A DNA stretch of 14,020 nt from a virus (lineage: Duplodnaviria > Heunggongvirae > Uroviricota > Caudoviricetes). The DNA lies in the IMG/VR virus record IMGVR_UViG_2737471843_000003, positions 1 through 14,020 of that record; one strand, 5' to 3'. Under the pieces are notes generated by a model. It was not told the DNA's origin. It worked only from the letters and a program-made list of their open reading frames with translations, and did not search any database. A program made the position numbers and the translations under genes. The stretch's first letter is position 1, and each line of letters opens with the position of its first letter. Positions 1 through 14,020 of this stretch are shown here, piece after piece.

Positions 1-342
1 ATGATGAAAAAAAGTATTCTGACGTTTCTGTTACTCACCAGTTCTGCAGCGGCGCTGGCTGCACCGCAGGTGATTACCGTCAGTCGTTTTGAAGTGGGTA
101 AAGACAAATGGGCGTTTAATCGCGAAGAGGTGATGCTGACTTGCAGACCGGGTAATGCTTTGTATGTCATTAACCCAAGTACCCTCGTGCAGTATCCTTT
201 AAACGATATCGCACAAAAGGAAGTTGCCAGTGGGAAGACTAAAGCCCAACCCATTTCGGTGATTCAGATTGATGATCCTAACAATCCCGGCGAAAAAATG
301 AGTCTGGCACCGTTTATAGAACGAGCTGAAAAACTCTGTTAA
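1..342 (+). CDS. yebY: Small secreted protein with N-terminal signal peptide, DUF2511/YebY-like
   Basis: ORF track 113 aa. The N-terminus [23 protein letters not shown] looks like a Sec signal peptide with an AxA cleavage site. I recognise the sequence as E. coli YebY from memory, not from a search. A hairpin plus T-run follows the stop. Confidence 0.6.
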
Positions 343-371
343 TTACCTAAAATAGCCTTTTGATTTCCAAT

Positions 372-413
372 AAAAAAACCGCCTCAGTTCTTTCACCAGA
401 ACGGGCGGTTTTT
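372..413. terminator. Rho-independent terminator downstream of yebY, A-run / GC stem / T-run, potentially bidirectional
   Basis: AAAAAAACCGCC at 372-383 pairs with GGCGG at 404-408, with an inner GTTC/GAAC pairing, followed by TTTTT at 409-413. The A-run on the other side would make it usable from the minus strand as well. Confidence 0.6.
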
Positions 414-469
414 AACATTTCAGCTGATGACCACCACGCTTTTTATTGACCATTTTGCACGCAAACTGG

Positions 470-500
470 AAAACCTGGCGTCGTCATCTATTCTTAAAGG
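470..500 (+). promoter_or_regulatory. Sigma-S-type promoter for sdsR
   Basis: A -10 element TATTCT at 489-494 preceded by C at 488 (the -13 C typical of sigma-S promoters), placed 6 nt upstream of the proposed SdsR 5' end at 501. No convincing -35 element. Confidence 0.45.
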
Positions 501-569
501 GCAAGGCAACTAAGCCTGCATTAATGCCAACTTTTAGCGCACGGCTCTCTCCCAAGAGCCATTTCCCTG

Positions 570-603
570 GACCGAATACAGGAATCGTATTCGGTCTTTT
601 TTT
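570..603 (+). terminator. Intrinsic terminator of SdsR
   Basis: GACCGAATAC (570-579), loop AGGAATC, GTATTCGGTC (587-596), then TTTTTTT (597-603). Read directly from the sequence. Confidence 0.75.
581..603. other. Putative attL core, the last ~23 bp of sdsR
   Basis: A tyrosine integrase gene ends 130 bp downstream. The terminal 23 bp of ryeB/sdsR has been reported as a recurrent phage attachment site in Salmonella and E. coli. The exact crossover cannot be determined from one junction. Confidence 0.4.
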
Positions 604-640
604 AATTGTATTTAAAATCAATTAGTTGCAAACGTCTCCC

Positions 641-670
641 CGAAATTACTCGAAATTTACTCGAATTTCT
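641..670 (+). repeat. Three tandem 10-11 bp direct repeats, candidate arm-type integrase binding sites
   Basis: CGAAATTACT (641-650), CGAAATTTACT (651-661), CGAATTTCT (662-670), read directly. They sit between the putative core and the int 3' end, like the P'1-P'3 arm sites of lambda attP. Confidence 0.4.
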
Positions 671-734
671 GTATTCCGGTCTTTTTTGGTTATATCACAA
701 CCAAAACACATTTAACAATCCATTTACGTTAAAA

Positions 735-1811
735 TCAGAGCAGTAAGTACGTTTTTTCTCTCTCATCAAGATACATTTTTGTTGTCTTCTCCGATGTGTG
801 GCCAAGTAGACGTTGAGCAAATTCTTCCCCACATGTTTCTTTGTACAATCGTCCAGCCAGGCTTCTGATCTCGTGAAAAGTTGGTGGGTTTTCACTGAAC
901 TGGATACCTGTTAATTTTCTGGCTGCGACAAATTTTTTTGTCAGGCCGTCCGGGTGAATGCTGCCGTCAGGGCTGTTTTTTCTAATCCCGGCACTGATTA
1001 GAAAATCTCCCCGGCTTACCAGGCGGCACCGTTCAACTACTGTACCAAGACGTAAACCAGCGACCGGAAGGCTGAGTGACAGGGGGATAGCAATCATCAT
1101 TCCTGTCTTAATTTGCCTGATGTGAAGACGATCATCATAAATATCACTGAACCGCATATTCGTTATGTCTTCGCGACGTTGTCCTGTTACAAGGGCTAAG
1201 TCCATAGCTAATGGGAACCATGCCGGAAGTTGATCTGCTGCCTCCCTGATGCAGTTGTATGTCTTTAGTTTCAGCCGTTCTCTTGTAACTACTATTTTCG
1301 GTGCTCTTGTTGGCGTTACTGGATTTTGAGATATACGCCCTTCAACAATGGCTTCGCGGAACATATCAGATAACACAGAACGCATTGATCCTGCCATCGT
1401 GTTTTTCCCTCCTTCAATCCACAAATCAAGAAACTCGGCAATATGGCGAGTGGTTATTTCTGTCAGTAAGATCCCTCCTAATTTTTCTTTTATTGTTTCC
1501 AGTTGATTTCCCCGAATTTTATAAGTATTTCTGGACACTTTTCTCCTTATAAGAATCGTTTTGTAACGTTCAATCCAGTCTGCCATAGTAAATGAGTCGA
1601 ACCCTTTAAGTTTTTCAATTAAGGCAGCAGGAGAGTAGTTTTTGTATATATAATGATTTGCTTCAATTGCCTGCGCGATTGCATCTCTTCTTGAAATTTT
1701 ACCTAGTGTAAATTCTTCTTTCGTAAGAGGGTTGCGCCAGTAATATGCTTTGTCCCTCCTTCGATATGTTAAGTTCCTAGGCAAATTGGGATCGTATTTT
1801 TTCCGCTGCAT
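735..1811 (-). CDS. int: Tyrosine recombinase, lambda Int-family integrase
   Basis: ORF track 358 aa. The N-terminus resembles the lambda Int arm-binding domain. The C-terminus carries the catalytic signature [11 protein letters not shown]...[15 protein letters not shown] (R, HxxR, Y). Its start overlaps the xis 3' end. Confidence 0.9.
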
Positions 1812-2058
1812 GTTTTAACTTCTCCAGTAACGGACTGTCTCTCCCTTGTCGCCCATTAGGCTGATGGTGTGTTATATCGGTATCAACCTTATTTGGGTTG
1901 ATATAGAAAGCCTCCGGAACCACCCTGTAACTCCTCCCGTGTAGTTCAGGTGCAGGATAAATGTTTCCATTCCTTGCCCATCGTCTCAGCGTTGATATTG
2001 ATGGTGGGTTATCCGGATATCTGAGTTTTCCCCACGTTTTGAGTGTCACAAGATTCAT
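1777..2058 (-). CDS. xis: Excisionase (Xis-like)
   Basis: The pattern VTLKTWGKL...STLRRWARNGNIYPAPELHGRSY resembles the lambda Xis winged helix. It overlaps int by 35 bp. I prefer the start at 2058 (AGAGG 7 nt upstream) over the track start at 2064. Confidence 0.7.
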   Translation of the reverse strand: MNLVTLKTWGKLRYPDNPPSISTLRRWARNGNIYPAPELHGRSYRVVPEAFYINPNKVDTDITHHQPNGRQGRDSPLLEKLKHAAEKIRSQFA

Positions 2059-2080
2059 TGCCATACCTCTTACGATATGA

Positions 2081-2109
2081 CCGCCAGTAAATATACAGAA
2101 TACTGGCGG
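2081..2109. promoter_or_regulatory. Perfect 9-bp inverted repeat upstream of xis
   Basis: CCGCCAGTA (2081-2089), 11-nt spacer, TACTGGCGG (2101-2109). It lies about 20 bp upstream of the xis ribosome-binding site with no adjacent T-run, so a protein-binding site or RNA hairpin is more likely than a terminator. Confidence 0.3.
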
Positions 2110-2164
2110 ACGTGATTGATTTTTAATAATCAGCTATGAAGTTATAATTTGGATATAATGCAAC

Positions 2165-2353
2165 TCACGAGGGCCGAAGTTTCTCGCAATTAAAATTTAT
2201 CAGCTTTACTTTCTGCTCTCTGGAAACGCCTGCTTCTTTTTTCCCCGAGAGCATTTTTTCGCATTCTGATTTAGTTAGTTTAGATTTTGAATATCTTGTC
2301 CAGTTAGTAGGAGTGCCACCTTCCTTTTCAATAGTGGCGGTAATTTTATACAT
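2165..2353 (-). CDS. Small hypothetical phage protein, 62 aa, at the Rac ydaC position
   Basis: In frame with track ORF 2165..2425. An internal ATG at 2353 is preceded by GGAGG with 5-nt spacing, and overlaps the lar stop by 8 bp. The family is not confidently recognised. Confidence 0.5.
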   Translation of the reverse strand: MYKITATIEKEGGTPTNWTRYSKSKLTKSECEKMLSGKKEAGVSREQKVKLINFNCEKLRPS

Positions 2354-2540
2354 GAACACCTCCATTATTATTTCCAGTGGTTCGTTTATTCCATCGTTCG
2401 AGTGCTTCTTTTTCACTTCCACCATAGCCGGTTCGGGATTCGCATCCGTTACACTTCGCGCGGTAATATCCTGAAATGGCTTTCACCGTTACTGATGGAC
2501 AACCACAAAAAGGGCATGGTTTGACTTTTTCATACCGCAT
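2346..2540 (-). CDS. ralR: Lar-family restriction alleviation protein (RalR-like)
   Basis: Track ORF 2346..2555. The CPFCG...CNGCE zinc-ribbon-like motif and ALERWNKR are typical of the Lar family. A start at 2540 gives 64 aa, the Rac RalR length as I recall it. Confidence 0.7.
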   Translation of the reverse strand: MRYEKVKPCPFCGCPSVTVKAISGYYRAKCNGCESRTGYGGSEKEALERWNKRTTGNNNGGVHV

Positions 2541-2603
2541 TGTCTTTTCTCTCATATAATAAAGTTTTGTGATGGCGGTGAGGCTACACCGCCAAAGTCA
2601 ATA

Positions 2604-3707
2604 TCAGGAGCCGATATATTCTGGTTTCATATCTGTCAGTGTCGTTTTATACGCCTCATATAATTCACCCAGATGTGGTCGTGCAGCATTCAGCGTATTT
2701 TCCAGAGCAGTAAATTTTTGTTCTGCTTCTGGATCACCTGATGAAGGCAGGTCATTTATCATCTTCTCGATACTGGCAATAGCATTGAGACGGTGATGAC
2801 GCCGAACCACTTTTCCTTTAAGCTCGGCAAAGAATTCGCCGATCTGGTTTTTCTGATCCTCTATCTCTTGGCGTAATGCAGTGGTTTCCTCAGTCGTGGC
2901 CGCGCTTTCTATACGCTGCCGGAATTCATCAATCCACGCTTCGTCAATACGCTGTTCGATGGTTTCTGTTCGCTGCTCGCTTACCTCGCTATAATTCTGT
3001 ACCGACACAGGATTGATGATTTTTTCCTGTGGCTCTTCCAGTTCGTCCGGGGTATACACGCCCAGGATGACGTCAGGACAATAAAGGCGAGCCCAGTATT
3101 TCAACGCCAGATAGGCGAGCTGTTGTTTCGGGTTTGAGGTCCATAAAGGAGAATTACGCGTAATCACGCTGGAAAGAAACACCGGTTCTCCCCAGGTAAT
3201 CTCACTTTCACCGCGAAGAACTGCACCAACTCGAACTGAGAGACCATACTCATCTTCACTGGTCCAACATGGGATCGTTTCTTTTTTCTCATAGATTCCG
3301 CCTCCTTTGGCCGTTTTCTTAACGATCTCCACTCGGGTGCGAGAGCATTTCTCCCAGTCTCCCTCGTACTTGTAATGGAAGCGACCTACAATTGCACTTG
3401 AGCTAGAGATCACAGCGTTAACCAGTTGTGCTTCATAACCCAGAACTCCGTTTACCAGGTGTGTTTTCTGAGCCACAGCGTAGGGGTTCATGCCCCATTG
3501 CATAGCTTGCATGATGATTGCCATGCAGTCGGCAGGATTTCCGCGAAGGTGATCGGGAACTGTGACGGTGGCCTGTGCCATCAACCCGGCTACTGCCTGA
3601 AGTTGCGTCAACGCCTGAACGTTAAAAATAGTGTTACTGGCAGAAATGGTATTTGGTGTCTGCTCTGTCGTGATGATATTGGTATTTTGCATGGTCAGGT
3701 TCTCCAT
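2604..3707 (-). CDS. Single-strand annealing protein, RecT/Redbeta superfamily, partner of RecE
   Basis: ORF track 367 aa. The core ADCMAIIMQAMQWGMNPY...VNGVLGYEAQLVNAV fits the RecT/Redbeta pattern. It sits immediately downstream of recE with a 1-nt stop/start overlap. It is clearly not the canonical 269-aa K-12 RecT sequence. An alternative start at 3692 has GGAG upstream. Confidence 0.7.
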   Translation of the reverse strand: MENLTMQNTNIITTEQTPNTISASNTIFNVQALTQLQAVAGLMAQATVTVPDHLRGNPADCMAIIMQAMQWGMNPYAVAQKTHLVNGVLGYEAQLVNAVISSSSAIVGRFHYKYEGDWEKCSRTRVEIVKKTAKGGGIYEKKETIPCWTSEDEYGLSVRVGAVLRGESEITWGEPVFLSSVITRNSPLWTSNPKQQLAYLALKYWARLYCPDVILGVYTPDELEEPQEKIINPVSVQNYSEVSEQRTETIEQRIDEAWIDEFRQRIESAATTEETTALRQEIEDQKNQIGEFFAELKGKVVRRHHRLNAIASIEKMINDLPSSGDPEAEQKFTALENTLNAARPHLGELYEAYKTTLTDMKPEYIGS

Positions 3708-6700
3708 TAAGCCAGATGCAGTGCTTCAAGACGACGAAGATCAAAGTCGTTTAATTCGTCGGTATAACTTTCGGTAATCGGTGCTGGCCAGTTGTTTGTC
3801 TCCAGGGCTTCGTTTATCTGGCGTAGCGTCCGGCGATATTCCTGTCGACCAAGTTCAAGGAGTTCCTGCGAGGCTTCCACGACTGCCACCCAGTGATAGC
3901 CAGCATCTTTGTTGACGAAGATCCAGAAAAATTTGTCCAGGTTTGCCACATCGCAATACATTGCGGCGCTGAGGTGATAATCACGCTCAATAATTTCACG
4001 GTGCAGGCGATCTTTAAGTCGTTCCTGCCGCACATAACCGAGGCTGACTGACTTCACGTCAGCGCAAATGCTTTCGTATGGCAGCCGGATTTCGATATCA
4101 GGACGGACCCTGATTTCCAGCCCGGTTTCTTCATCAAACCCGAAATAGCTGATTTCAGATTTGCGATCCGGGTGGTTGAGTAGCCTTGCTGCATCGGTAT
4201 TGTTTTGCAGTGCCGCGTGAATATTTTTTGCCTGTTCATACATATCCGGACTGATAAACGTTTTCCCGGCGTTTTCTTCTTGCTGGCGTTTTTGCCAGTC
4301 CTCCAGTGTCACCAGTTCCGGGCGAATTTTCCGTGCGATTTCGGTTAATTGCTCTTTTGTGCCACTGATGTTGTAAGGCAAAGATTTAGCACGTTCTTTT
4401 TTTGCCAGTTCTGGATCTACAGTTTCAATTTGATCCAGAAGCTGCTCCCGTGCTCCACTGGTTTTCAACAGAGGAGGGAGGCTTGCGTTGTATTCTTTAA
4501 TACAGGCTTTCATTGCTGATGCTGTGTGTTTTTCCCCCTCAGGAATACGCCGAAATTCCACCGGAAGCGAACCGTAAAGGATGCCTGTTTCTTCGGCCCC
4601 AGCACTTACAGACAGTGGCTGTATAAGAGTGCTGTTGTAGCTTTCGATCCACTCTTTCATCTGCTCTGGTGTCATCAGTGCTGGCAGACTGGCATTGTGT
4701 TTTTTAATGATGGCGATCAGTTCGTTAGAAGTAGTAACCACATATTCAGGAACCGGTACCGGAATGGCATATTCATCTGCGAATTTATCCGTTTCCAGAA
4801 CATAGCTGTGAATGATCCGCCCACGCAGCAGTGCGTCACTTTCCTCGTTCGGAATAGTTCCGGCAATGTGCCGCCCGTGGTAATACATCAGGCTGATACG
4901 GGCATCCTTCAGCATCGTGCTGCTTATTCCGTTGGCGGAGTGATAAACCTCGTTCGGGAGGTTTTCATAGCGGCCTGGCTCGAAATATGACGGCCACATG
5001 ATTTCAGTTGCTACAGGAGCTGACGCTTCGCCAGTTTCATCACTGCAATTGCGATGCGGATCGCTGTCAGCATTCTCATTGTGCTGATGTTCAGCGCCTT
5101 CCATTTCCTCCGGATCTTTTTCCAGAGATTCATCCAGATTTTCTTCATTAAATGTTTCCTGATACGTTGCGTCGCCCATCGCCGCGCCACAATCAGGGCA
5201 GTTGCCCCCACCGATCTGACCGCAGGCGGTGCAGACTTTTTCCGGTTCTTGTTGCTCTTCTGGTTCAGGCTGTTTCGTTTCTGGCTCGTTTTGTTGCGTA
5301 TTTGGGCTGTTTTGTTCCGCTTTCTTGTCGTTCTGTTCCGTTTCTTGCTGGTTCTGGTTCACAGAGTCGAGGGTTTCAATCCCCTTAACCCATTTCGGAT
5401 CGTTCGGGTCGCTAATCCCTTCAACAAATTCTCCGCGAGAGGCAGCCAGTAATTTGTCTGCATCGACAGGATTTTTGGGCGGAATGTTTTTCCGGGCTTC
5501 ATGGAGTTCTGCCCGCAGTTTCTGATATTTCGCATCAACAGAATTTACCTGTGACTGAGCATCCAGCGGCTGCGTGTTCTGATGATGTTCAGTTGCATTC
5601 GGTTCCACTGTTTCAGCCGTTGCCTGTTCATCTGCCATTGCGCCAGATGGTTGTGGTTTTTCTTCATCGTCCTGTTTTCCTTCTTCTGTTACTCGCTGCG
5701 GCATCGGGGCAGAGGAGCGACCGCAGGCAATATCCACGATTTCCGGATCAGGGTTGGCATGATCGGTTTCAGTCAGTACTTTGTTCAGATATTCAGTGAC
5801 GTGTGCGGGGATGACCTCGATCCCAATTGGTGCTTCTTTCACGGACGCAACCACGATGGCGCGGGAATAATCCAGCCCGCCAGGCATGGTGATGAATTTG
5901 TCGCGGAAAACAGAAAAGGGTGGTTTATTTTCAGCGATAATTTCCTCAATGCGTTTAGCGTGTGCCGGATGAAGGTTATAAATGTCCACGTCCATTGAAC
6001 GGGCCAGTACGCCAGTGGCTACATCGCGTGCCAGTGACGTCAGATCGTGGACGAAACCTTCGCCGCGATCGGTGAGGTTCCCGCCGCCAGCATTAGCACC
6101 GGAAGCCGTGCGAGTGATGCGTGAAACACGATTTCCTTTCATCCACTCTTTTGTCAGCAGACCGCGATCGGTGTAGTCTGCGTCCAGGTATGCTTCGAAA
6201 AAAGCAGTCATCAGCCCCAGACTTGAATTGCCTGGATTAGGGAAAACTTTGTCAGTATCACGAACCAGTCTGTGAAGATCGCGAATCTCCAGCGGGTCGA
6301 GCAGGCTGGTTTTGTGGGAAACAGCTAGGGCAGTAACAGCTGGTAGTTCTTCGGCCCGTGCAATATGTAATGTCTGGAGTTCGTCGCGTGAAACGTGCGT
6401 TACCGGTTTTTCGCTGCCGTGTTGAGCAAGCCAGCGAATGGGCAGCTCTTGGCCAGAAATCGGGAGTAGCATATTCTCCTCAATCTCAGTCATGTCTTCG
6501 CCATTAACATTGGTATTGTCAGTGCTGTCTGGTTTGTACTGCGCAGAGGATGAGGGCGCGATAAATACCATTGTGATGCCATCTTCCCCGCCTTTTTCGT
6601 AACGGTTGCAGAATTCCGTATCAAATACGCCTTCTGGTGGAAGGTCATCAACAACGGGCAAATTGACGCGAACAGGTTTTTTAAAGTCATCTTCATCGTA

Positions 6701-6856
6701 GCCAGCATCGTCAATCGCAACAGCACCACGGGAGATGGCAATGGATAATTTTTTCGCTTCAGCCCAGTAGAAACCGCCTTTAATACCGAGACGTTTTCTT
6801 ACTTTGTCATTTTTTGCTTCGTAATACAGTGGGTAAACTTGTTTATCGGTGCTCAT
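3707..6856 (-). CDS. recE: Exonuclease VIII (RecE-family 5'-3' dsDNA exonuclease)
   Basis: ORF track 1049 aa. The C-terminal domain carries PD-(D/E)xK-type residues (RPDIEIR...CADVKS) and long stretches I recognise as RecE-like. It is about 180 aa longer than the 866-aa K-12 RecE as I remember it. Confidence 0.85.
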
Positions 6857-6926
6857 TGTTTTTTAACCTCAACTCAGATTAAAATTACTGCGAGTGATGA
6901 ATAAATGTCCCTGGTTCTTCACTCAG

Positions 6927-6957
6927 GCCTGCACAGTGTGCAGGCTTTCTTTTTTTC
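6927..6957 (+). terminator. Perfect hairpin with T-run in the racC-recE intergenic region, terminator-like only on the plus strand
   Basis: GCCTGCACA (6927-6935), G, TGTGCAGGC (6937-6945), then TTTCTTTTTTT. On the minus strand, which is the operon strand, the hairpin is preceded by an A-run and has no U-tail. Confidence 0.35.
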
Positions 6958-7231
6958 AGATTTCACCTTTTAATTTCATTGCAATCAGAGTTGCCAGAAA
7001 TTCGGCTTTTTTTTCTGCGGGCAGATTCTTTCCTATGTGCACCAGACACATTTTTTTAACACCATCGTTAAGTGTTTTAACGTTGCCTGATGGACCGTCG
7101 ATATCAACCACAGTGAATGGGGTTTCTTTATTTTCTGTCTTAATCACGTAGCCAATACGCTTTCCTTCCAGGCTGACTTCGTGAACAATGTCATCGGTAG
7201 TTACAACAGTGGCTTCATAACTGGTAATCAT
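6956..7231 (-). CDS. racC: RacC-like protein, 91 aa
   Basis: Track ORF 6956..7279. The ATG at 7231 is preceded by AAGGAG with 6-nt spacing and gives 91 aa beginning MITSYEATVVTTDD, recognised as Rac RacC. Confidence 0.75.
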   Translation of the reverse strand: MITSYEATVVTTDDIVHEVSLEGKRIGYVIKTENKETPFTVVDIDGPSGNVKTLNDGVKKMCLVHIGKNLPAEKKAEFLATLIAMKLKGEI

Positions 7232-7305
7232 GTTTTTCTCCTTAATTAAGGTTGAGCGAATCTCTGCCATTTCTGGCATAAATTCAGTTTCGAATAGTCA
7301 ATTAA

Positions 7306-7476
7306 TTAAAGTTCGTGTGCCATCTGGTCTTTTTCGGCACAGATTTCACTACAATATTTTTTCATTTCCGTCGTTGGTATAACTCCACGCATGAAATGAA
7401 GTGGTCTTGTAATGATTTTGCTTTCTTCAATTTCTTTATTGCAAAGGTGATAAGCACATTTTATTTTCTTAGTCAT
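7306..7476 (-). CDS. ydaE: Small Cys-rich protein, 56 aa, YdaE-like
   Basis: Not in the ORF track because it is under 60 aa. Hand translation gives [56 protein letters not shown]. Its ATG overlaps the kilR TGA stop (ATGA). Its size and position match Rac ydaE. Confidence 0.6.
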   Translation of the reverse strand: MTKKIKCAYHLCNKEIEESKIITRPLHFMRGVIPTTEMKKYCSEICAEKDQMAHEL

Positions 7477-7697
7477 CACCATGACTCCGCCTTTACAGGT
7501 AAACCATCACGACCGAGGAAGACTTTAATCATGCGGTCAGTAATGCATGTTTTTGTGGTCAGGTTACGAATATAAAGTTTTCGCTTTTTAATATTGTTTG
7601 CCGAGGCGATATATGTCCGACCTTCATGAAGAACATAATCGCCAGGAGTCACACACTGACGTGGTATTTCATCAGTTCCGAAGTGATGAGCAATCAT
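7476..7697 (-). CDS. kilR: KilR-like cell-division inhibitor, 73 aa
   Basis: Track ORF 7476..7709. The ATG at 7697 is preceded by GGAG and gives a 73-aa protein beginning [15 protein letters not shown], recognised as Rac KilR. Confidence 0.75.
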
Positions 7698-8106
7698 AAT
7701 TATCTCCATTTTTACAAATGAATTTTGTCGATGCGGTGCCTGGTGCCTCCAGGTGACGTTAACCAGTTAACAATTAACGCCGGATATTTCACCCATAACT
7801 CTGCTACGAAGGACAATAGCTTTTTAACTGTTCCGCGTGCGCTTAGCCGCATTCACCGCATCACAAAATTCACTTTAAAAAGGGGCGGCAGGGCAGCCAC
7901 GGAGTAGAACTGATGCCGCCAAAGACTACACACAGCAATGTCGTTATTTACAACCGGAGGCGCACTCCCACCATTTAAATTTAACAGACAAAACCGACTC
8001 TTTATGAATACCGGAAATGCGCCTTCGTGTTGTGCGCCTGTCTTTTTACCACTTCAGGCTCGGTGGTATACTGGAGTTCTCACACAACCAGTAATAAGGT
8101 ATTCCT

Positions 8107-8301
8107 ATGGATAATAAAGACAAAGCCTGTCTACTTGCTTTAGCTTTCAGCATCAGATCGCAGCGAGAAACAACTCATCAATAATTTTTCTCGGAAATCG
8201 AGAATGCTGAGAATGAGTTTTTGTCACTACTCAATGAACGTGATGCTAAAAAAAGCGCCGATTCACTTAAGGCTTGGGCGAAACTAGGCTCTTCAAAATA
8301 A
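8107..8301 (+). pseudogene. Small ORF interrupted by an in-frame TAA: 25 codons, stop, 38 codons
   Basis: ATG at 8107 gives MDNKDKACLLALAFSIRSQRETTHQ, TAA at 8182-8184, then in the same frame FFSEIENAENEFLSLLNERDAKKSADSLKAWAKLGSSK ending at TAA 8299-8301. An extended -10 (TGgTATACT, 8064-8072) lies upstream. Its 3' end overlaps the convergent 72-aa gene. Confidence 0.3.
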
Positions 8302-8485
8302 TTGCTTCTGTAGCGGCATGAACAACTGTTTTTGCCGCCTCTTCAACTTCCTTGTCTGGACGACCAGCCTTTACTTTTTCTGCAATGACCTCCAGCACAG
8401 TTGGAAGAACCTTGCTAATAAGCATGGCTGCCACATCTTTGCTGCACAATTGACCGTTAATAACAACCAGATCTTCACCAACCAT
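8267..8485 (-). CDS. Hypothetical small protein, 72 aa
   Basis: Track ORF 8267..8542, whose first codon is TTG. The internal ATG at 8485 is preceded by AAGGGGA. It is the first gene downstream of the candidate pL-like promoter. Function unknown. Confidence 0.45.
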   Translation of the reverse strand: MVGEDLVVINGQLCSKDVAAMLISKVLPTVLEVIAEKVKAGRPDKEVEEAAKTVVHAATEAIILKSLVSPKP

Positions 8486-8660
8486 CTTTTTTCCCCTTAA
8501 CGCCGGGTGGCGGAACGTTTTATCTACTGCGCTTTGTATCAATCAACAACTGCCGTCATGTTCGTATGCCTCAGGCTGGCTACTTAGCCCTATTCAGTGG
8601 CTGGATAACTCGAGGTATTGTCCTGCCGTTCTCTGGTGGGGCGTTGTTTGGATATGGCAA

Positions 8661-8689
8661 ATGCTCACATATCGTGAGTGTTTTGTCAA
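8661..8689 (-). promoter_or_regulatory. Candidate pL-like leftward promoter with an operator palindrome in its spacer
   Basis: On the minus strand: TTGACA (plus 8684-8689), 17-bp spacer, GAGCAT (plus 8661-8666, weak -10 with TG upstream). The perfect palindrome CTCAC-N5-GTGAG at 8664-8678 overlaps the spacer and -10 and matches the operator motif found between the repressor and ydaS. Confidence 0.4.
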
Positions 8690-8730
8690 CTCAATATGTG
8701 AACAATGTTGCTTTTGGATTTTTGATGGAC

Positions 8731-8765
8731 AAAAAAAAGCCCTCGCTAATAGCGAGAGCTTTTTG
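8731..8765. terminator. Rho-independent terminator downstream of the repressor gene, bidirectional shape
   Basis: A8 (8731-8738), GCCCTCGCT (8739-8747), loop AAT, AGCGAGAGC (8751-8759), then TTTTT. One mismatch in the stem. Confidence 0.6.
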
Positions 8766-8790
8766 ATTGGAATCGAGGGAGATTAAAGGC

Positions 8791-9180
8791 TTAGGAGGAT
8801 TTTTTCTGTTGCCTGCTTCTTAGATATTTTTCCACATACTCATCAAGCTCTTGAAGACGGATTTCGAACAGATCAATCATGCGTGCTTGTTCCGATCCTG
8901 GGAGCTGATTAAACAGTTCTAGCATTTTTTTCTGGTTATCATTTAACCACGAGTAAGTGTTTTCCTGTTCACCGAACATTAATTCTGCGGGGGAAATGCC
9001 TAGTACCTGGCCGAGGATGATCGCATCCTCAGCCCCCACACTCCTGGTGCCAGCTTCGTAGTTAGCAATACGAGAAGAACCTGACCAACCACATAGTTTT
9101 GCCAGGTTTCCCATACTTAATCCTCGATTTAGGCGAGTGGCTTTTAGTCGCTCGCCTATTTGTTCTGCAATGGTTTTCAT
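8791..9180 (-). CDS. XRE-family HTH prophage repressor (cI/RacR-like), 129 aa
   Basis: Track ORF 8791..9285. The HTH region is LSMGNLAKLCGWSGSSRIANYEAGTRSVGAEDAIILGQVLGISPAEL. I prefer the ATG at 9180; the track start at 9285 is a TTG that would overlap the ydaS start. The gene is divergent from the Cro-like gene. Confidence 0.8.
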   Translation of the reverse strand: MKTIAEQIGERLKATRLNRGLSMGNLAKLCGWSGSSRIANYEAGTRSVGAEDAIILGQVLGISPAELMFGEQENTYSWLNDNQKKMLELFNQLPGSEQARMIDLFEIRLQELDEYVEKYLRSRQQKKSS

Positions 9181-9274
9181 AGCTCCGATTTTATCACGAT
9201 GTGTGAAATTAGCGGTACTCACATATCTGTAGTTGATCTTGCTCACGAAATGTGAATAATAGAAACAGGAGGTA
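9181..9274. promoter_or_regulatory. Divergent promoter/operator region with three operator-like sites at ~24-bp spacing
   Basis: TCACGATGTGTGA (9194-9206), CTCACATATCTGTAG (9218-9232, half-site match) and TCACGAAATGTGA (9243-9255). Rightward promoter: TTGATC (9233-9238), 16 bp, AATAAT (9255-9260). Leftward -10 TAAAAT (plus 9188-9193) sits 7 nt from the repressor ATG. Confidence 0.6.
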
Positions 9275-9277
9275 ATG

Positions 9278-9520
9278 ATGAACAAAATTTCAACATATCG
9301 AAAACAGCTTGGGCTGTCTCAAAGACAACTTGCTGTTCAGTTAGGGTGGATACAAAGCCGACTGGCAAATTACGAAGCAAATTTTCGTACCCCTGGGCTA
9401 GAGGAGTGCAGAAAAATTGTTTCTACCCTTAATCGGCTTGGCGCTCATTGTGGACTTGACGATGTATTCCCCCCAGACGGTAAGCATAGCGAAAACAGCA
9501 TAGGAGCGGTTGATTCATGA
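9278..9520 (+). CDS. ydaS: Cro-like HTH protein, YdaS-like
   Basis: Track ORF 9275..9520. AGGAGG at 9267-9272 favours the ATG at 9278. The HTH region is LGLSQRQLAVQLGWIQSRLANYE. It is the first gene of the rightward operon and its stop overlaps the ydaT start (ATGA). Confidence 0.7.
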   Translation: MNKISTYRKQLGLSQRQLAVQLGWIQSRLANYEANFRTPGLEECRKIVSTLNRLGAHCGLDDVFPPDGKHSENSIGAVDS

Positions 9521-9939
9521 AAATCAGGCATGAGCATATCGAATCAGTGTTGTTGGCCCTGGCAGCCGAAAAAGGGCAGGCGTGGGTCGCTAACGCAATT
9601 ACTGAAGAATATCTGCGCCAGGGGGGCGGCGAATTGCCCCTTGTACCAGGCAAGGACTGGAACAATCAGCAGAATATCTATCACCGTTGGTTGAAAGGTG
9701 AAACGAAAGCGCAAAGGGAAAAAATTCAGAAACTGATCCCTGCGGTTCTGGCAATTCTTCCGCGCGAGCTGCGTCACCGACTCTGCATCTTCGATACCCT
9801 GGAACGCCGTGCATTACTGGCGGCGCAGGAAGCGTTGAGTACGGCAATTGATGCGCATGATGATGCAGTCCAGGCCGTTTACCGGAAAGCACATTTCAGC
9901 GGTGGTGGGTCGCCCGGCGATTCTGTCGTAGTGCATTGA
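9517..9939 (+). CDS. ydaT: YdaT-like protein, 140 aa, reported as a toxic prophage protein
   Basis: ORF track 140 aa. I recognise the sequence MKIRHEHIESVLLALAAEKGQAWVANAITEEYLRQGGGELPL as Rac YdaT from memory. It is translationally coupled to ydaS. Confidence 0.75.
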   Translation: MKIRHEHIESVLLALAAEKGQAWVANAITEEYLRQGGGELPLVPGKDWNNQQNIYHRWLKGETKAQREKIQKLIPAVLAILPRELRHRLCIFDTLERRALLAAQEALSTAIDAHDDAVQAVYRKAHFSGGGSPGDSVVVH

Positions 9940-9983
9940 TTGAAATTAATCGTGCCGGATTGTTTTGTTCGGTATCAGTTAAA

Positions 9984-10004
9984 TGTAACGCTGCGAGCGT
10001 TACA
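9984..10004. promoter_or_regulatory. Perfect 21-bp palindrome 12 bp upstream of the ydaU-like start codon
   Basis: TGTAACGCT-GCG-AGCGTTACA with 9-bp perfect arms, read directly. The same core recurs inside the downstream gene. Confidence 0.45.
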
Positions 10005-10016
10005 AGGTGAAAACAA

Positions 10017-11153
10017 ATGGCTTCAAACTGGATAAAGCTCGAGGTTATTACGCCGGATAAGCCGGAAATATTCAGGCTTGCTGAGATTCTGAATATTGAT
10101 CCAGATGCCGCATTAGGGAAGGTTATTCGCTTCTGGGCATGGGCGGATCAACAAATGATAGACGGTAATGCAGATTGTAACGCTCGCGGCGTTACAAAAA
10201 GTGCAATAGATCGCATCACTTTTATGGCTGGTTTTGCTGATGCGTTAATTCAGGTTGGATGGCTGGTCGAAAATGACGGTGGGCTTTCTCTACCTAACTT
10301 TGAACGTCATAACGGAAAAAGCTCTAAAAAACGGGCGGTTACAAACGAGCGAGTTACAAAAATACGCGAACTGAAACGAAAAGGTAACGCTGGCAGCGTT
10401 ACACAAACGGATCAAAAAGCGTTACCAGAGGAAGAGGAAGAGGAAGAGGAAGATCTAAATACTGATCTAACCCATCCCAAACCCTTCCCTTCCGGAAGGG
10501 AGTTTCGGGATTTTGTGGCTGGAGTGCTTGAGGGGAGATTATCTGGCGGTACTGCAGCGGAATTTTGTAATTCTGCGGTGGTGGCGTTGCAGGCCGCTGG
10601 CCTGGATGTCTGTCGTGAGTATCCGGTACCAGAGCGTGGAGACGGTTGCGGAGGTCGGATTGATATCGTCGTGACTGACAGGAACGGTGTCCGGTGTGGG
10701 ATCGAACTTGACCGAAATTCTCCACGACAAAAATCACTGCTCAAAATCGGCGCTGTTGAAACCGGGATATGTGTCTTGCGGCGCAGTGATATCGCAAGGC
10801 ACACCGAGCAGGGAATTCTGGTTATCGGTGGGGCTGTTCGCCAGAAAAAATTTGACCCGTTGTCAGTTGATCTGCCCGACTGGTTGCCAGAAACACTCTG
10901 GCATGAGTGGGTCCAGTTCAGGCAGGCATTGCGAAAACCGATTCGAACGGAGCAGGGCGCTAACGGGGCGATACGGGAACTGGAAAAATTCCGTCAGCAG
11001 GGGTTTACACCTGAGCAGGTGATTCGACACAGCATCGCCAATGAATACCAGGGCCTGTTCGCGCCGAAAGGTGTTCGGCCTGAGACGTTGCTCCGACAGG
11101 TTAACACCGTCTCGTTGCCGGACAGTGCGATCCCGCCAGGCTTCAGGGGGTAA
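10017..11153 (+). CDS. ydaU: Replication initiator / replisome organiser, YdaU-like, with a poly-Glu linker and an extra central domain
   Basis: ORF track 378 aa. The N-terminus MASNWIKLEVITPDKPEIFRLAEILNID...VIRFWAWADQQ resembles the DUF1376 N-terminal pattern of lambdoid initiators. It sits just upstream of the DnaC-like gene. It is longer than the 285-aa K-12 YdaU as I recall it. Confidence 0.75.
   Translation: MASNWIKLEVITPDKPEIFRLAEILNIDPDAALGKVIRFWAWADQQMIDGNADCNARGVTKSAIDRITFMAGFADALIQVGWLVENDGGLSLPNFERHNGKSSKKRAVTNERVTKIRELKRKGNAGSVTQTDQKALPEEEEEEEEDLNTDLTHPKPFPSGREFRDFVAGVLEGRLSGGTAAEFCNSAVVALQAAGLDVCREYPVPERGDGCGGRIDIVVTDRNGVRCGIELDRNSPRQKSLLKIGAVETGICVLRRSDIARHTEQGILVIGGAVRQKKFDPLSVDLPDWLPETLWHEWVQFRQALRKPIRTEQGANGAIRELEKFRQQGFTPEQVIRHSIANEYQGLFAPKGVRPETLLRQVNTVSLPDSAIPPGFRG
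10176..10425. repeat. Iteron-like array of GTTACA-core repeats inside the initiator gene, candidate ori
   Basis: TGTAACGCTCGCGGCGTTACA (10176-10196); direct GTTACAAA half-sites at 10338-10345 and 10353-10360; palindrome GTAACGCT-GGC-AGCGTTAC (10384-10402); half-site AGCGTTAC (10418-10425). A-rich stretches lie between them. Confidence 0.45.
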
Positions 11154-11159
11154 CAGACC

Positions 11160-11906
11160 ATGAAAAATATTGCGACAGGAGGCGTTCTGGAGCGTATCCG
11201 CAGACTGACCCCACCACATGTAACCGCCCCATTCAGAACGGTTGCGGAGTGGCGCGAGTGGCAACTTGCTGAAGGGCAGAAACGTTGCGAGGAGATCAAC
11301 CGCTTGAATCGTCAGTTGCGGGTGGAAAAAATCCTGAATCGCTCTGGCATCCAGCCGTTGCACCGCAAATGTTCGTTTGCGAATTACCAGGTGCAGAACG
11401 ACGGCCAGCGATACGCGTTAAGCCAAGCGAAATCCATCGCCGATGAACTGATGACCGGGTGTACAAATTTTGCGTTCAGCGGAAAACCTGGTACCGGGAA
11501 GAACCATTTAGCGGCAGCTATCGGGAATCGCCTGCTGAAAGACGGTCAGACAGTGATTGTGGTTACCGTGGCTGATGTTATGAGTGCCCTGCATGCCAGC
11601 TATGACGACGGGCAGTCAGGCGAAAAATTTTTGCGGGAACTGTGCGAAGTGGATCTGCTGGTTCTTGATGAAATTGGCATTCAGCGCGAGACGAAAAACG
11701 AGCAGGTGGTACTGCACCAGATTGTTGATCGCCGGACAGCGTCGATGCGCAGCGTGGGAATGCTGACAAACCTGAACTATGAGGCCATGAAAACATTGCT
11801 CGGCGAGCGGATTATGGATCGCATGACCATGAACGGCGGACGCTGGGTGAATTTTAACTGGGAGAGCTGGCGTCCGAATGTCGTCCAGCCAGGAATTGCG
11901 AAGTAA
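11160..11906 (+). CDS. ydaV: DnaC/IstB-like AAA+ helicase loader, YdaV-like
   Basis: ORF track 248 aa. Walker A motif [15 protein letters not shown] and Walker B LLVLDEIG are present. It lies immediately downstream of the initiator gene. Confidence 0.85.
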
Positions 11907-11928
11907 TTTTTACCGGGAGAAAAATTTA

Positions 11929-12690
11929 ATGGAGACTGTTTTTGACGCACTGAAAGCAATGGGAAAAGCCACATCCTTAGAACTTGCTGCGCGACTTGGT
12001 ATCAGTCGTGAAGAAGTGCTGAACGAACTATGGGAACTGAAAAAAGCTGGTTTCGTTGATAAAAGCGCGTACACCTGGCGTGTGGCTGATAACAACGTTC
12101 AGCAGGAACAGCCAGCGCCGGAAGAACAGCCGGAAGAAACCACCACGGCAACAGTAGCGAAAATCTCAGAGTGCGATTTAACCGCGACGATTGAACAACG
12201 CGGACCACAAACGGCGGATGAGCTGGCTGCGTTGTTCGGTACCACATCACGCAAAGTAGCTTCAACGCTGGCAATGGCAATCAGCAAGGGGCGTCTGATT
12301 CGCGTAAATCAGAACGGTAAATTTCGTTACTGCATACCGGGCGATAATTTACCAGCAGAGCCGAAAGCTGCATCGGTAACGGAAACTGATGGTAAGGCCT
12401 TTCCTCAGCCCGCAGGTGTTGCGTTACCAGTACAGGAAGCGGCAACACAGGAAGATATTAAAACAGAAACTGTGGCGGACATTGTGCAGTCGCTGCCATC
12501 GTTCACCGAAACGCGAGCGGATGACCTGATTTTACCATCGCTGCATATGGCAAACCGCGAACTGCGTCGGGCGAAAAGTCATGTCCAGAAGTGGGCGCGA
12601 GTCTGCGCCGCGCTGCGGGAGCTGAACAAGCACCGGGATATTGTTCGACAGATTACTGATTCTTCCCGCCGTGTTGTATCGGAAAAGTGA
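11929..12690 (+). CDS. Hypothetical phage protein with two winged-helix-like segments
   Basis: Track ORF 11878..12690. Two ATG starts are possible: 11878 (GGAGAG upstream, overlaps ydaV) and 11929 (GGGAGA upstream). The segments [30 protein letters not shown] and [30 protein letters not shown] look like winged-helix folds. Function unknown. Confidence 0.55.
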
Positions 12691-12705
12691 TTGCCGGAGG
12701 CACTT

Positions 12706-13128
12706 ATGGCAAAAGTATTTACACAAGAAGAGCGGGAAAAAATTAAAGGGCAGGTTGTTGAGCTAGTACGCCGGAGTGGGCGCGAGACGTTACGGCAACT
12801 GGAAGCCAAGACAGGTGCGACAAGATATCTGATGAGCGTTCTCGCCAGAGAGCTTGTTGCCAGTGGCGATGTATACAACTCTGGTTACGGGTTATTTCCG
12901 TCTGAACAGGCCCGTAAGGACTGGCAAAACGCCCGCAAAAAACTCTCCAGGGCAAAGGTGAAAAAAACGGTTGTGGTTGATCCTGACCTTATCTGGTCAT
13001 TACCAGACGGAGAAATACGCCGCTACGACAGGCGCCTGAATATAATCTGTCGCGAGTGCCGGAAGAGCGAAGCTATGCAGCGTGTACTGGCTTTCTATCA
13101 GGGTAATTTTCAGGAGGTAGCGCAGTGA
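12706..13128 (+). CDS. Hypothetical phage protein, 140 aa
   Basis: Track ORF 12691..13128, which begins with TTG. The ATG at 12706 is preceded by GGAGG with 5-nt spacing. Its stop overlaps the GTG start of the methyltransferase gene. Confidence 0.55.
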   Translation: MAKVFTQEEREKIKGQVVELVRRSGRETLRQLEAKTGATRYLMSVLARELVASGDVYNSGYGLFPSEQARKDWQNARKKLSRAKVKKTVVVDPDLIWSLPDGEIRRYDRRLNIICRECRKSEAMQRVLAFYQGNFQEVAQ

Positions 13129-13598
13129 GTGCACCGGCAACCATTCTTGATATGTGCTGTGGCAGTCGCATGTTCTGGTTCGATAAGAATGACGACCGGG
13201 CGATATTTAGCGATATCAGAAAGGAAGAGCACACATTGTGTGATGGACGACGCTTGATTATCAGTCCTGATCTGATAGCTGATTTTCGTGCACTACCATT
13301 TGCAGACGCATCTTTTTCGATGGTTATATTCGACCCTCCGCATCTTGAGCGTGTTGGTGATAACGCCTGGATGGGAAAGAAATATGGACGGCTGAATAAA
13401 GATACCTGGCGTGATGATTTGCGGCAGGGATTTAAAGAAGCCTTTCGTGTGTTGCGTCCATCCGGCGTTCTGATTTTTAAATGGAATGAAACGCAAATAC
13501 CTGTTCGCCAGATATTGATACTGACCGACAGAAAACCTGTTATCGGTCAACGAACAGGAAAAAACGATAAAACCCACTGGATTATTTTTATGAAATAG
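13125..13598 (+). CDS. Small SAM-dependent amino-methyltransferase, DPPH motif, RsmD/N6-adenine-MTase-like fold
   Basis: ORF track 157 aa. Motif I-like ILDMCCGSRMF and motif IV-like IFDPPH occur in the order typical of N6A/N4C/m2G amino-methyltransferases. The GTG start has AGGAGG 7 nt upstream. No target-recognition domain is evident. Confidence 0.65.
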   Translation: MSAPATILDMCCGSRMFWFDKNDDRAIFSDIRKEEHTLCDGRRLIISPDLIADFRALPFADASFSMVIFDPPHLERVGDNAWMGKKYGRLNKDTWRDDLRQGFKEAFRVLRPSGVLIFKWNETQIPVRQILILTDRKPVIGQRTGKNDKTHWIIFMK

Positions 13599-13744
13599 GC
13601 ATCCAGTGAGTAGGTTCGTAAGGTTACAGATACGTATATCTGAATAATTAAATTTAGTTCTGTAAATAAAATTTAATCCTTAATCGGAGGGATTTCTGCA
13701 CCCTCAAATCATCAGGAGGCCGCCCGAAAGGGCGGTAGTGAAAA

Positions 13745-14020
13745 ATGACTGAATTAACCAAAGAGCAATTAATCGAAGAGGCCAAATTAAAAATAGCGAT
13801 TGCGAAATGCCACCCCAATTCAGGGTTGGCACGAGTAGAGGGTGAGTTATTCAAAATTGCTCTGGCATCACTGGAGCAGAATGCACTATCGGGCAACTCT
13901 CCGCTTATTCCTGGTGAAGTGTTGTCCGCAATCCGGGAGGTTGCCAGGATTCGCGCCGATTTCGATGATTTTGACGGTGACAGGCGAGGTATCGGTGATT
14001 GTCTGGATGAGGCCGAGCAA
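13745..14020 (+). CDS. Hypothetical protein, 5' partial ORF running off the window end
   Basis: ATG at 13745 and an open frame to 14020 (92 codons, MTELTKEQLIEEAKLKIAIAK...). It is missing from the ORF track because it has no stop within the window. The upstream signal is weak. Confidence 0.45.
   Translation, partial: MTELTKEQLIEEAKLKIAIAKCHPNSGLARVEGELFKIALASLEQNALSGNSPLIPGEVLSAIREVARIRADFDDFDGDRRGIGDCLDEAEQ

Follow-up and report, generated by a model that had tools for sequence, protein, structure and literature searches.

In phages lambda and P22 and in the Rac prophage, the gene sieB is expressed from a promoter of its own. It is situated between the kil region and the immunity repressor, runs opposite to the early leftward operon, and converges on the first leftward genes. 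In Escherichia coli K-12, the pairs sieB-ydaF and ymfI-ymfJ have been listed as convergent excludons from RNA-seq coverage (PMC12288877). The gene ymfJ is induced late in the SOS response (PMC11002266), which fits control by a cI-like repressor. Here we analyzed a locus of comparable layout in a stretch of 14,020 nucleotides (the window; positions 1 to 14,020 of the IMG/VR virus record IMGVR_UViG_2737471843_000003), which is a Rac-like E. coli prophage. The locus is an open reading frame (ORF) of 64 codons, ORF64, at 8107-8301 on the plus strand, interrupted by a TAA codon. We consider it very probable that 8107-8301 represents a loss-of-function allele of a genuine and conserved phage gene, with a product of 64 residues, that occupies the sieB position in a Rac-like prophage.

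Like sieB, ORF64 is located between kilR with a DicF-like RNA on one side and the immunity repressor on the other, antisense to the early leftward operon. It also has a candidate promoter of its own and is convergent with the first leftward gene, here a 72-codon frame denoted ORF72. A Rac-type phage whose flanks, including those on the left, are otherwise homologous carries sieB in the slot of ORF64. However, the predicted ORF64 product is a soluble two-helix protein of 64 aa whereas the annotated SieB has 204 aa, and the conserved block ahead of ORF64 is unlike the region ahead of the Rac sieB. No SieB match to ORF64 was found in Pfam, NCBIfam or PHROG, and ORF64 looked unrelated to SieB of phage 666R9 in a comparison by eye only, with no pairwise alignment.

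The ymfI-ymfJ pair of prophage e14 has the same block upstream and the same kind of convergent overlap with a minus-strand gene of a repressor-controlled operon, but the proteins are unrelated (YmfI, 113 aa, phrog_8894; YmfJ, 102 aa, phrog_12693). ORF64 resembles morons in being a small accessory gene with a candidate private sigma-70 promoter, located between conserved phage modules and varying among similar prophages. It differs from them in that its promoter and leader are common to many cargo genes instead of travelling with each, and in that the cargo is a convergent two-gene unit with no terminator directly after ORF64. With excludons the locus shares face-to-face units with overlapping 3' ends, one of them probably under repressor control; the difference is that transcript overlap and mutual exclusion are here inferred from sequence and from the K-12 analogues.

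A 64-codon frame interrupted by one ochre codon

The features of the broken frame are as follows.

8107-8301, plus strand: ORF64, small-protein gene of PHROG 22868 (RefSeq WP_072650407.1/WP_001419881.1 when intact), apparently a pseudogene here
8182-8184, plus strand: ochre codon TAA in place of GAA (Glu26, nearly invariant in the family), produced by a single G-to-T change at 8182
8128-8130, plus strand: codon 8, TGT (Cys) in place of the near-invariant family TGG (Trp), common to the window and its two closest E. coli relatives

ORF64 extends from the ATG at 8107-8109 to the stop codon TAA at 8299-8301, and its sole internal stop is the TAA at codon 26. A first-pass annotation, made from the sequence, had described a 64-codon frame broken by this one TAA, preceded by TGgTATACT and overlapping a 72-aa gene at its 3' end. 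We reproduced the coordinates of the frame, located the motif at 8064-8072, where a promoter scan pairs it with TTTACC, and measured the overlap as 35 nt shared with a minus-strand gene at 8267-8485. The other frames across these 195 nt contain only two stops each, so a frame with one stop is not by itself beyond chance. Because neither the frame nor the promoter motif exceeds chance alone, we judged the reality of ORF64 by its relatives. The truncated product of the window allele would have 25 residues and would lack helix 2 and the PEEFL...FLSLL core, and the allele is most likely null.

ORF64 belongs to a conserved family of small proteins

When codon 26 was restored, ORF64 matched phrog_22868 with E = 1.8e-45, residues 1-64 aligning to profile positions 1-64 of 64. 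Other members of PHROG 22868 have an uninterrupted frame, which the window copy lacks. The intact ORF64 is present in RefSeq as a PGAP-annotated 'hypothetical protein'. The first protein search with ORF64 returned Escherichia clusters only. A search via the 72-aa partner led to prophages of Salmonella, Klebsiella, and Raoultella, each with a 64-aa ORF and the identical 35-nt convergent overlap. A profile search with ORF64 then gave 46 protein clusters, including members from Escherichia, Salmonella, Klebsiella, Raoultella, Superficieibacter, Citrobacter, and Edwardsiella. The length was found to be 64 aa in Escherichia, Salmonella, Klebsiella, and Raoultella and 58-62 aa in Citrobacter and Edwardsiella. 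The family alignment has the motif DKAWLLAvAY..T.P..iTPEEFL.EVERSE.dFLSLL...W..LGS, in which Glu26 and Trp8 are each at least 90% conserved.

An exhaustive search with a hidden Markov model (1.84 billion representatives, 50% clustering) returned only 8 matches, indicating a small family. Besides known members, three distant small proteins with a DKAW...TPEEF...EV motif were new among them. A 1870-aa match with nine matched stretches (P0071) was set aside, uninspected, as presumably spurious.

We estimated the ratio of non-synonymous to synonymous substitution rates (dN/dS) by the Nei-Gojobori method on the 53 codons of ORF64 outside the partner overlap, with the two shifted frames as controls. 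Between diverged copies, dN/dS was 0.05-0.24, with p down to 1.5e-10; the comparison with this lowest value had 20 synonymous and 7 non-synonymous differences. The shifted control frames had dN/dS near or above 1 in most comparisons. Third positions were variable in 45 of the 53 codons, versus 26 first and 22 second positions. One lineage tolerates a GTG start codon in place of ATG. This pattern of substitution argues that ORF64 is a genuine gene, selected at the protein level.

The AlphaFold2 model of ORF64 contains two helices, at residues 3-17 and 24-61, with a pLDDT of 80. Inspection of the sequence by eye, with no predictor, showed neither a signal peptide nor a membrane segment. An unannotated homologue with 46% identity was also observed in the Klebsiella phage ST405-OXA48phi1.2 (MK416007.1, locus L136), at locus coordinates 3501-3689; in that record only the 72-aa partner is annotated and the ORF64 homologue is omitted.

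Codon 26 is a sense codon in all relatives examined

In the nearest relative, from E. coli PEC178, codon 26 is GAA and the 64-aa product is intact. Over 7930-8591, this relative differs from the window at a single position, with G instead of T at 8182. Codon 26 was found to be GAA or GAG (Glu) or GAT or GAC (Asp) in every relative examined. We searched for both alleles with short exact sequences. Among 5426 complete E. coli genomes, 29 contained the GAA 40-mer and none contained the TAA 40-mer. As a control, the GAA 36-mer was found in 14 viral contigs of IMG/VR, and the TAA 36-mer was found neither in IMG/VR nor in the JGI metagenome contigs.

We inspected 14 of the 29 genomes with GAA individually. 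An intact coding sequence of 195 nt (WP_001419881.1 or WP_072650407.1) was present in 12. The remaining two, chicken isolates Z1323CEC0005 and Z1323CEC0006 (loci L145 and L146), carry an additional G after 8275. This insertion is within the overlap (8275-8276) and shifts the frames of ORF64 and its partner together, with the partner growing from 72 to 102 aa. In total, 55 copies of ORF64 were compared, of which 50 were intact, 1 was ended by a contig edge, and 4 were broken (the window copy, the two frameshifts, and a truncation at locus L121). Counts of the frameshift allele were attempted with 40-mers spanning the A7 run at 8248-8254, but these matched neither allele, probably because of low-complexity masking.

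Comparison of the TAA with homologous prophages had been proposed as a check in the first-pass annotation, which gave a recently inactivated gene as its first explanation. That explanation is borne out by the sense codon 26 in all relatives, the intact ORF in RefSeq, the purifying selection, and the uniqueness of the TAA allele. The comparisons support the TAA being either a private nonsense allele, which would make the window copy a pseudogene by nonsense mutation, or a sequencing error.

A conserved block of putative promoter and leader precedes ORF64

Upstream of ORF64, we identified an island of conservation that contains putative signals for its expression.

8036-8099, plus strand: conserved block of putative promoter, leader, and Shine-Dalgarno sequence (GCCTGTCTTTTTACCACTTCAGGCTCGGTGGTATACTGGAGTTCTCACACAACCAGTAATAAGG), seen as a conservation island
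8045-8050, plus strand: -35-like hexamer TTTACC, from the promoter scan, with a 16-nt spacer to the -10
8064-8072, plus strand: extended -10 TGgTATACT (TGGTATACT), from the promoter scan and conservation
8096-8099, plus strand: Shine-Dalgarno sequence AAGG, 7 nt ahead of the ATG, from the sequence; AAGGA forms the conserved right-hand end of the block

The promoter scan of 7400-9400 returned only two sigma-70-like sites, one of which is TTTACC-16-TGgTATACT (8045-8072). Transcription probably starts near 8079, as judged from the position of the -10, and the leader RNA is unstructured (fold z-score 0.46). Between the window and the Klebsiella and Raoultella loci, the block is about 92% identical, compared with 58-62% for ORF64 DNA and about 70% for the partner gene; the 100 nt to the left of the block are at background identity.

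The block was also found ahead of other genes. A 281-nt query (8040-8320) matched 415 of 5426 E. coli genomes (about 8%), mostly over its first 55 nt (8040-8094) only, at sites without an annotated feature. In K-12, the block is located in prophage e14 directly upstream of ymfI, with 92.7% identity over 55 nt, and in strain 06-00048 it is followed by an unrelated ORF with an annotated length of 77 aa. Scanning IMG/VR with the core GTGGTATRCTGGAGTTCTCACACARC gave 119 loci, which together with other loci made 133 copies. In 130 of the 133, the core is followed at 10-20 nt by the start of an ORF of at least 25 aa. These downstream ORFs belong to at least 18 unrelated families of 59-148 aa, with ORF64 and YmfI the largest (34 copies each). 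The cargo representatives tested matched only PHROGs of unknown function, apart from one zinc-ribbon Pfam match below the family cut-off. In PADLOC-DB 2.0, no profile matched ORF64, ORF72, YmfI, YmfJ, or the pair of strain 06-00048 at E values up to 1.

All 133 copies contain TAT[A/G]CT with an upstream TG, a part that was within the search pattern. The consensus of 75 distinct flanks is gCCTGTCTTTT.ACCACTTCAGGCTCG-GTGGTAT[A/G]CTGGAGTTCTCACACA[A/G]C-CAG[T/C]AAGGA, and conservation ends immediately past the Shine-Dalgarno sequence at its right end. A variant subfamily of the block has an altered spacer, yet keeps TTTATC at the unchanged distance of 16 nt. This is strong comparative evidence that 8036-8099 acts as a functional promoter, leader, and ribosome binding site for the plus strand. 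Direct evidence comes from the K-12 analogues, ymfI-ymfJ and sieB-ydaF, which are transcribed in that strain according to the RNA-seq listing (PMC12288877). The extended -10 promoter that the first-pass annotation had assigned to the frame thus gains backing from the conservation of the block ahead of unrelated genes.

Further searches concerned the block as an RNA. With a permissive threshold, Rfam over 7850-8800 returned only the DicF-like RNA, and no RNA family was found on the block or on ORF64. The hairpin GCCTG...CAGGC in the block was considered as an RNA element, but its stem scarcely varies and offers no usable covariation. The prophage small RNA svsR was rejected as a match to the block, as it sits at the 3' end of cI and is unrelated (PMC12803456). 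Scanning a one-genome-per-species contig collection with the block pattern gave two E. coli records only and was uninformative.

ORF64 and ORF72 form a convergent pair with conserved borders

The partner gene and the right side of the variable region have the following features.

8267-8485, minus strand: ORF72, 72-aa partner (PHROG 23495), probably the first gene of the leftward early operon, co-inherited with ORF64
8267-8301, both strands: convergent 3' overlap of ORF64 and ORF72, 35 nt, in 29 of 31 scored copies across genera
8492-8516, minus strand: right border of the variable cassette, with the ORF72 leader and Shine-Dalgarno sequence (GTTCCGCCACCCGGCGTTAAGGGGA), 92-100% identical to loci with unrelated cargo

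ORF72 matches phrog_23495 (unknown function) and has a dN/dS of 0.29-0.52. The pairing of ORF64 and ORF72 persists with different neighbours, such as a ParE/Phd pair replacing kilR. A single-linkage cluster had joined ORF72 with YmfJ-like proteins, but the alignment revealed that ORF72 does not have the YmfJ N-terminal module, and this relationship was rejected.

The 25 nt at 8492-8516, just upstream of the ORF72 start, contain a small GC hairpin. Because loci of unrelated cargo have this segment in common, the variable unit is flanked on both sides by conserved translation-initiation regions. The leader follows the pattern GTTCCGCC-ACCC-GGCG-TTAAGGGG, with a GC stem whose loop differs between loci, and may act in the early leftward transcript as an RNA signal, perhaps of the nut or put type. 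Farther upstream there are other conserved blocks, among them AAGTAGCCAGCCTGAGGCATACGAA. In loci of other cargo classes (L003, L017, L048, L056, L093, and L128), the minus-strand partners have a YmfJ-like N-terminal module, ELKHVIALLLEDAKRLQQxEPNAGTEARI, followed by unrelated C-termini. Because the N-terminal module is kept and the C-terminus is variable, there is a mosaic junction inside the partner gene in those loci.

These observations led us to a broader but doubtful proposal. The segments 8036-8099 and 8492-8516 could be the borders of an 'expression socket' in Rac- and e14-type prophages of Enterobacterales, between which unrelated convergent small-gene cassettes are swapped. The left side would provide a fixed lysogenic promoter, leader, and Shine-Dalgarno sequence, and the right side the leader and Shine-Dalgarno sequence, likewise fixed, of the early transcript under repressor control. 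Each cassette would then consist of an exclusion or host-modulating protein expressed in the lysogen and an early-lytic antagonist, with ORF64 and ORF72 as one such pair. A search of one literature library for a variable slot at this position or for the shared block found no description of either there.

The leftward control region and the prophage context

To the right of the cassette are the signals that are likely to control the leftward operon.

8661-8704, minus strand: candidate leftward early promoter, TTGACA at 8689-8684, 17 nt, and GAGCAT at 8666-8661, proposed from the sequence
8734-8764, both strands: bidirectional terminator-like hairpin with an A-run on one side and a T-run on the other, from the promoter and terminator scan and the sequence

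Operator-like palindromes TCAC-N5-GTGA are located at 8665-8677 and 8694-8704, overlapping the candidate leftward promoter, and the same palindrome occurs three times between the repressor and cro-like genes (9194-9255). ORF72 would be the first gene of an operon controlled by this repressor. The candidate leftward promoter faces the ORF64 promoter at a distance of about 600 bp. The hairpin at 8734-8764 lies between the repressor gene and the leftward promoter. No terminator-like site was found on the plus strand in 8301-8619, the first convincing one being this hairpin, and it is likely that both the plus-strand ORF64 transcript and the repressor transcript end there.

The gene order was read from the annotation of PEC178, the closest complete genome. 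On the minus strand, the annotation contains an integrase, an excisionase, ralR, recT, recE, ydaE, and kilR. Next comes a plus-strand gene at precisely the position of ORF64, whose 64-aa product is named 'hypothetical protein', and after it a 72-aa hypothetical protein, a helix-turn-helix repressor, a cro-like gene, ydaT, and replication genes. Three RNA features were identified elsewhere in the window.

7883-7934, minus strand: DicF-like RNA (Rfam RF00039), 61.6 bits versus a gathering score of 48
2169-2347, antisense to ralR: RalA antitoxin RNA, Rfam, 221 bits
463-607: SraC/RyeA and SdsR/RyeB small-RNA genes, Rfam

The DicF-like RNA is inside the leftward operon, between the ORF64 promoter block and kilR and just upstream of the latter. 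RalA and ralR are the type I toxin-antitoxin pair of Rac. The SraC/RyeA and SdsR/RyeB genes directly adjoin the integrase gene (735-1811), and because of this we place the insertion of the Rac-like prophage at the ryeA/ryeB locus.

Discussion

The comparisons favor a real phage gene that has lost its function in the window. Several points count against this interpretation or limit it. The motif TGNTAWAMT occurs three times in the window where 1.83 are expected and alone is not rarer than chance. ORF64 has no significant match in Pfam, NCBIfam, PADLOC, PDB sequence profiles, or in Foldseek searches against PDB and BFVD. In the E. coli Rac lineage, dN/dS is about 0.6, not significantly below 1, and the sub-lineage of the window (the window and its two closest relatives) has the substitution W8C. 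Because of these last two observations, ORF64 may have been drifting beforehand, which is compatible with constraint having perhaps already relaxed in the cryptic prophage prior to the nonsense hit. An exclusion role for ORF64, and a role of the partner as antidote, are suggested by position and analogy as their sole basis.

If the gene functions as we propose, a sigma-70 polymerase would start at about 8079 in the lysogen, constitutively. The product would be a small soluble cytoplasmic protein of two helices with an accessory, moron-type role, most plausibly in superinfection exclusion or host modulation. The plus-strand transcript would continue antisense through ORF72 toward the leftward promoter (about 8689-8661) and the terminator at 8734-8764. 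Upon induction, the leftward promoter would fire, and convergent transcription would silence ORF64 while ORF72, a possible antagonist, is made. In the window allele, the untranslated 3' part may lower the level of the antisense transcript via Rho-dependent polarity.

An antisense transcript regulating the leftward operon had been listed among the possibilities in the first-pass annotation. If the plus-strand RNA, and not a protein, were what matters, antisense transcription or transcriptional interference would keep ORF72 and the leftward operon off in the lysogen, and the stop would be functionally irrelevant. The face-to-face promoters about 600 bp apart, the 35-nt coding overlap, and a transcript that would be antisense to the whole of ORF72 all fit this idea, as does the listing of the analogous K-12 pairs as excludons (PMC12288877). 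Yet the frame is under purifying selection at the protein level with its length and start kept, and the Shine-Dalgarno sequence is conserved with an ORF after the block in 130 of 133 copies, neither of which an RNA-only role would need. We therefore regard an RNA-only role as unlikely. The two roles can coexist in one locus and, because the frame is under protein-level selection, antisense regulation of the leftward operon is most readily understood as a secondary effect of the convergent arrangement and not as the primary role.

A second alternative, which also counts against a lost gene, is that the TAA arose as an error in sequencing or assembly, or as a very recent mutation in the laboratory, and that the gene is intact in the organism. 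The allele is unique, being found in none of the 5426 complete E. coli genomes and in neither IMG/VR nor the metagenome contigs, and the T at 8182 is the only difference from PEC178 over about 660 nt. On the other hand, cryptic prophages commonly carry private nonsense alleles, ORF64 has been disrupted independently in other copies (the +1 G in the chicken isolates and the truncation in L121), and the substitution is atypical as an error of any current sequencing platform. We consider an error improbable, with roughly the standing of an outside chance.

Two further explanations accept the TAA as real, and both are very improbable. The locus might encode two small peptides of 25 aa and about 38 aa, as the first-pass annotation had also suggested. 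The 25-aa N-terminal part is still translatable from the intact ribosome binding site, but past the TAA there is no in-frame ATG or GTG, the sole candidate start being the TTG at 8221 without a Shine-Dalgarno sequence, and in every relative the protein is continuous, with a length of 64 aa or, in the most distant ones, of 58-62 aa. The suggestion of two peptides was not upheld. Alternatively, a suppressor tRNA or programmed recoding might allow readthrough of the UAA, yielding the full-length protein. Nothing specific points to this, although ochre suppressor strains exist. A UAA followed by U is a strong termination context, no recoding signal was seen, and no relative has a stop at codon 26.

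That ORF64 is merely a chance open frame in AT-rich intergenic DNA is scarcely credible: one stop per 195 nt is not unusual (the other frames have two) and ORF64 has no Pfam family, but its length, frame, and motif are conserved across genera, its dN/dS is 0.05-0.24 versus controls near or above 1, and it has a PHROG match and a PGAP annotation.

The locus itself is ordinary, a correctly spotted pseudogene of an annotated hypothetical gene and a member of PHROG 22868. On its own it carries little weight, as a further instance of accessory-gene decay in a cryptic prophage; annotation pipelines should mark it as a pseudogene. The reusable promoter slot with many small-protein cargos is a more interesting, if modest, by-product. 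About 8% of complete E. coli genomes contain the block, as do prophages of Klebsiella, Salmonella, and Raoultella, and it precedes at least 18 unrelated small proteins at the sieB position. The block provides a sequence handle with which candidate lysogen-expressed small proteins and their convergent partners can be collected for screens of exclusion, toxicity, and partner rescue. The locus may also serve as a small natural model of a switch between convergent promoters that is linked to the prophage repressor.

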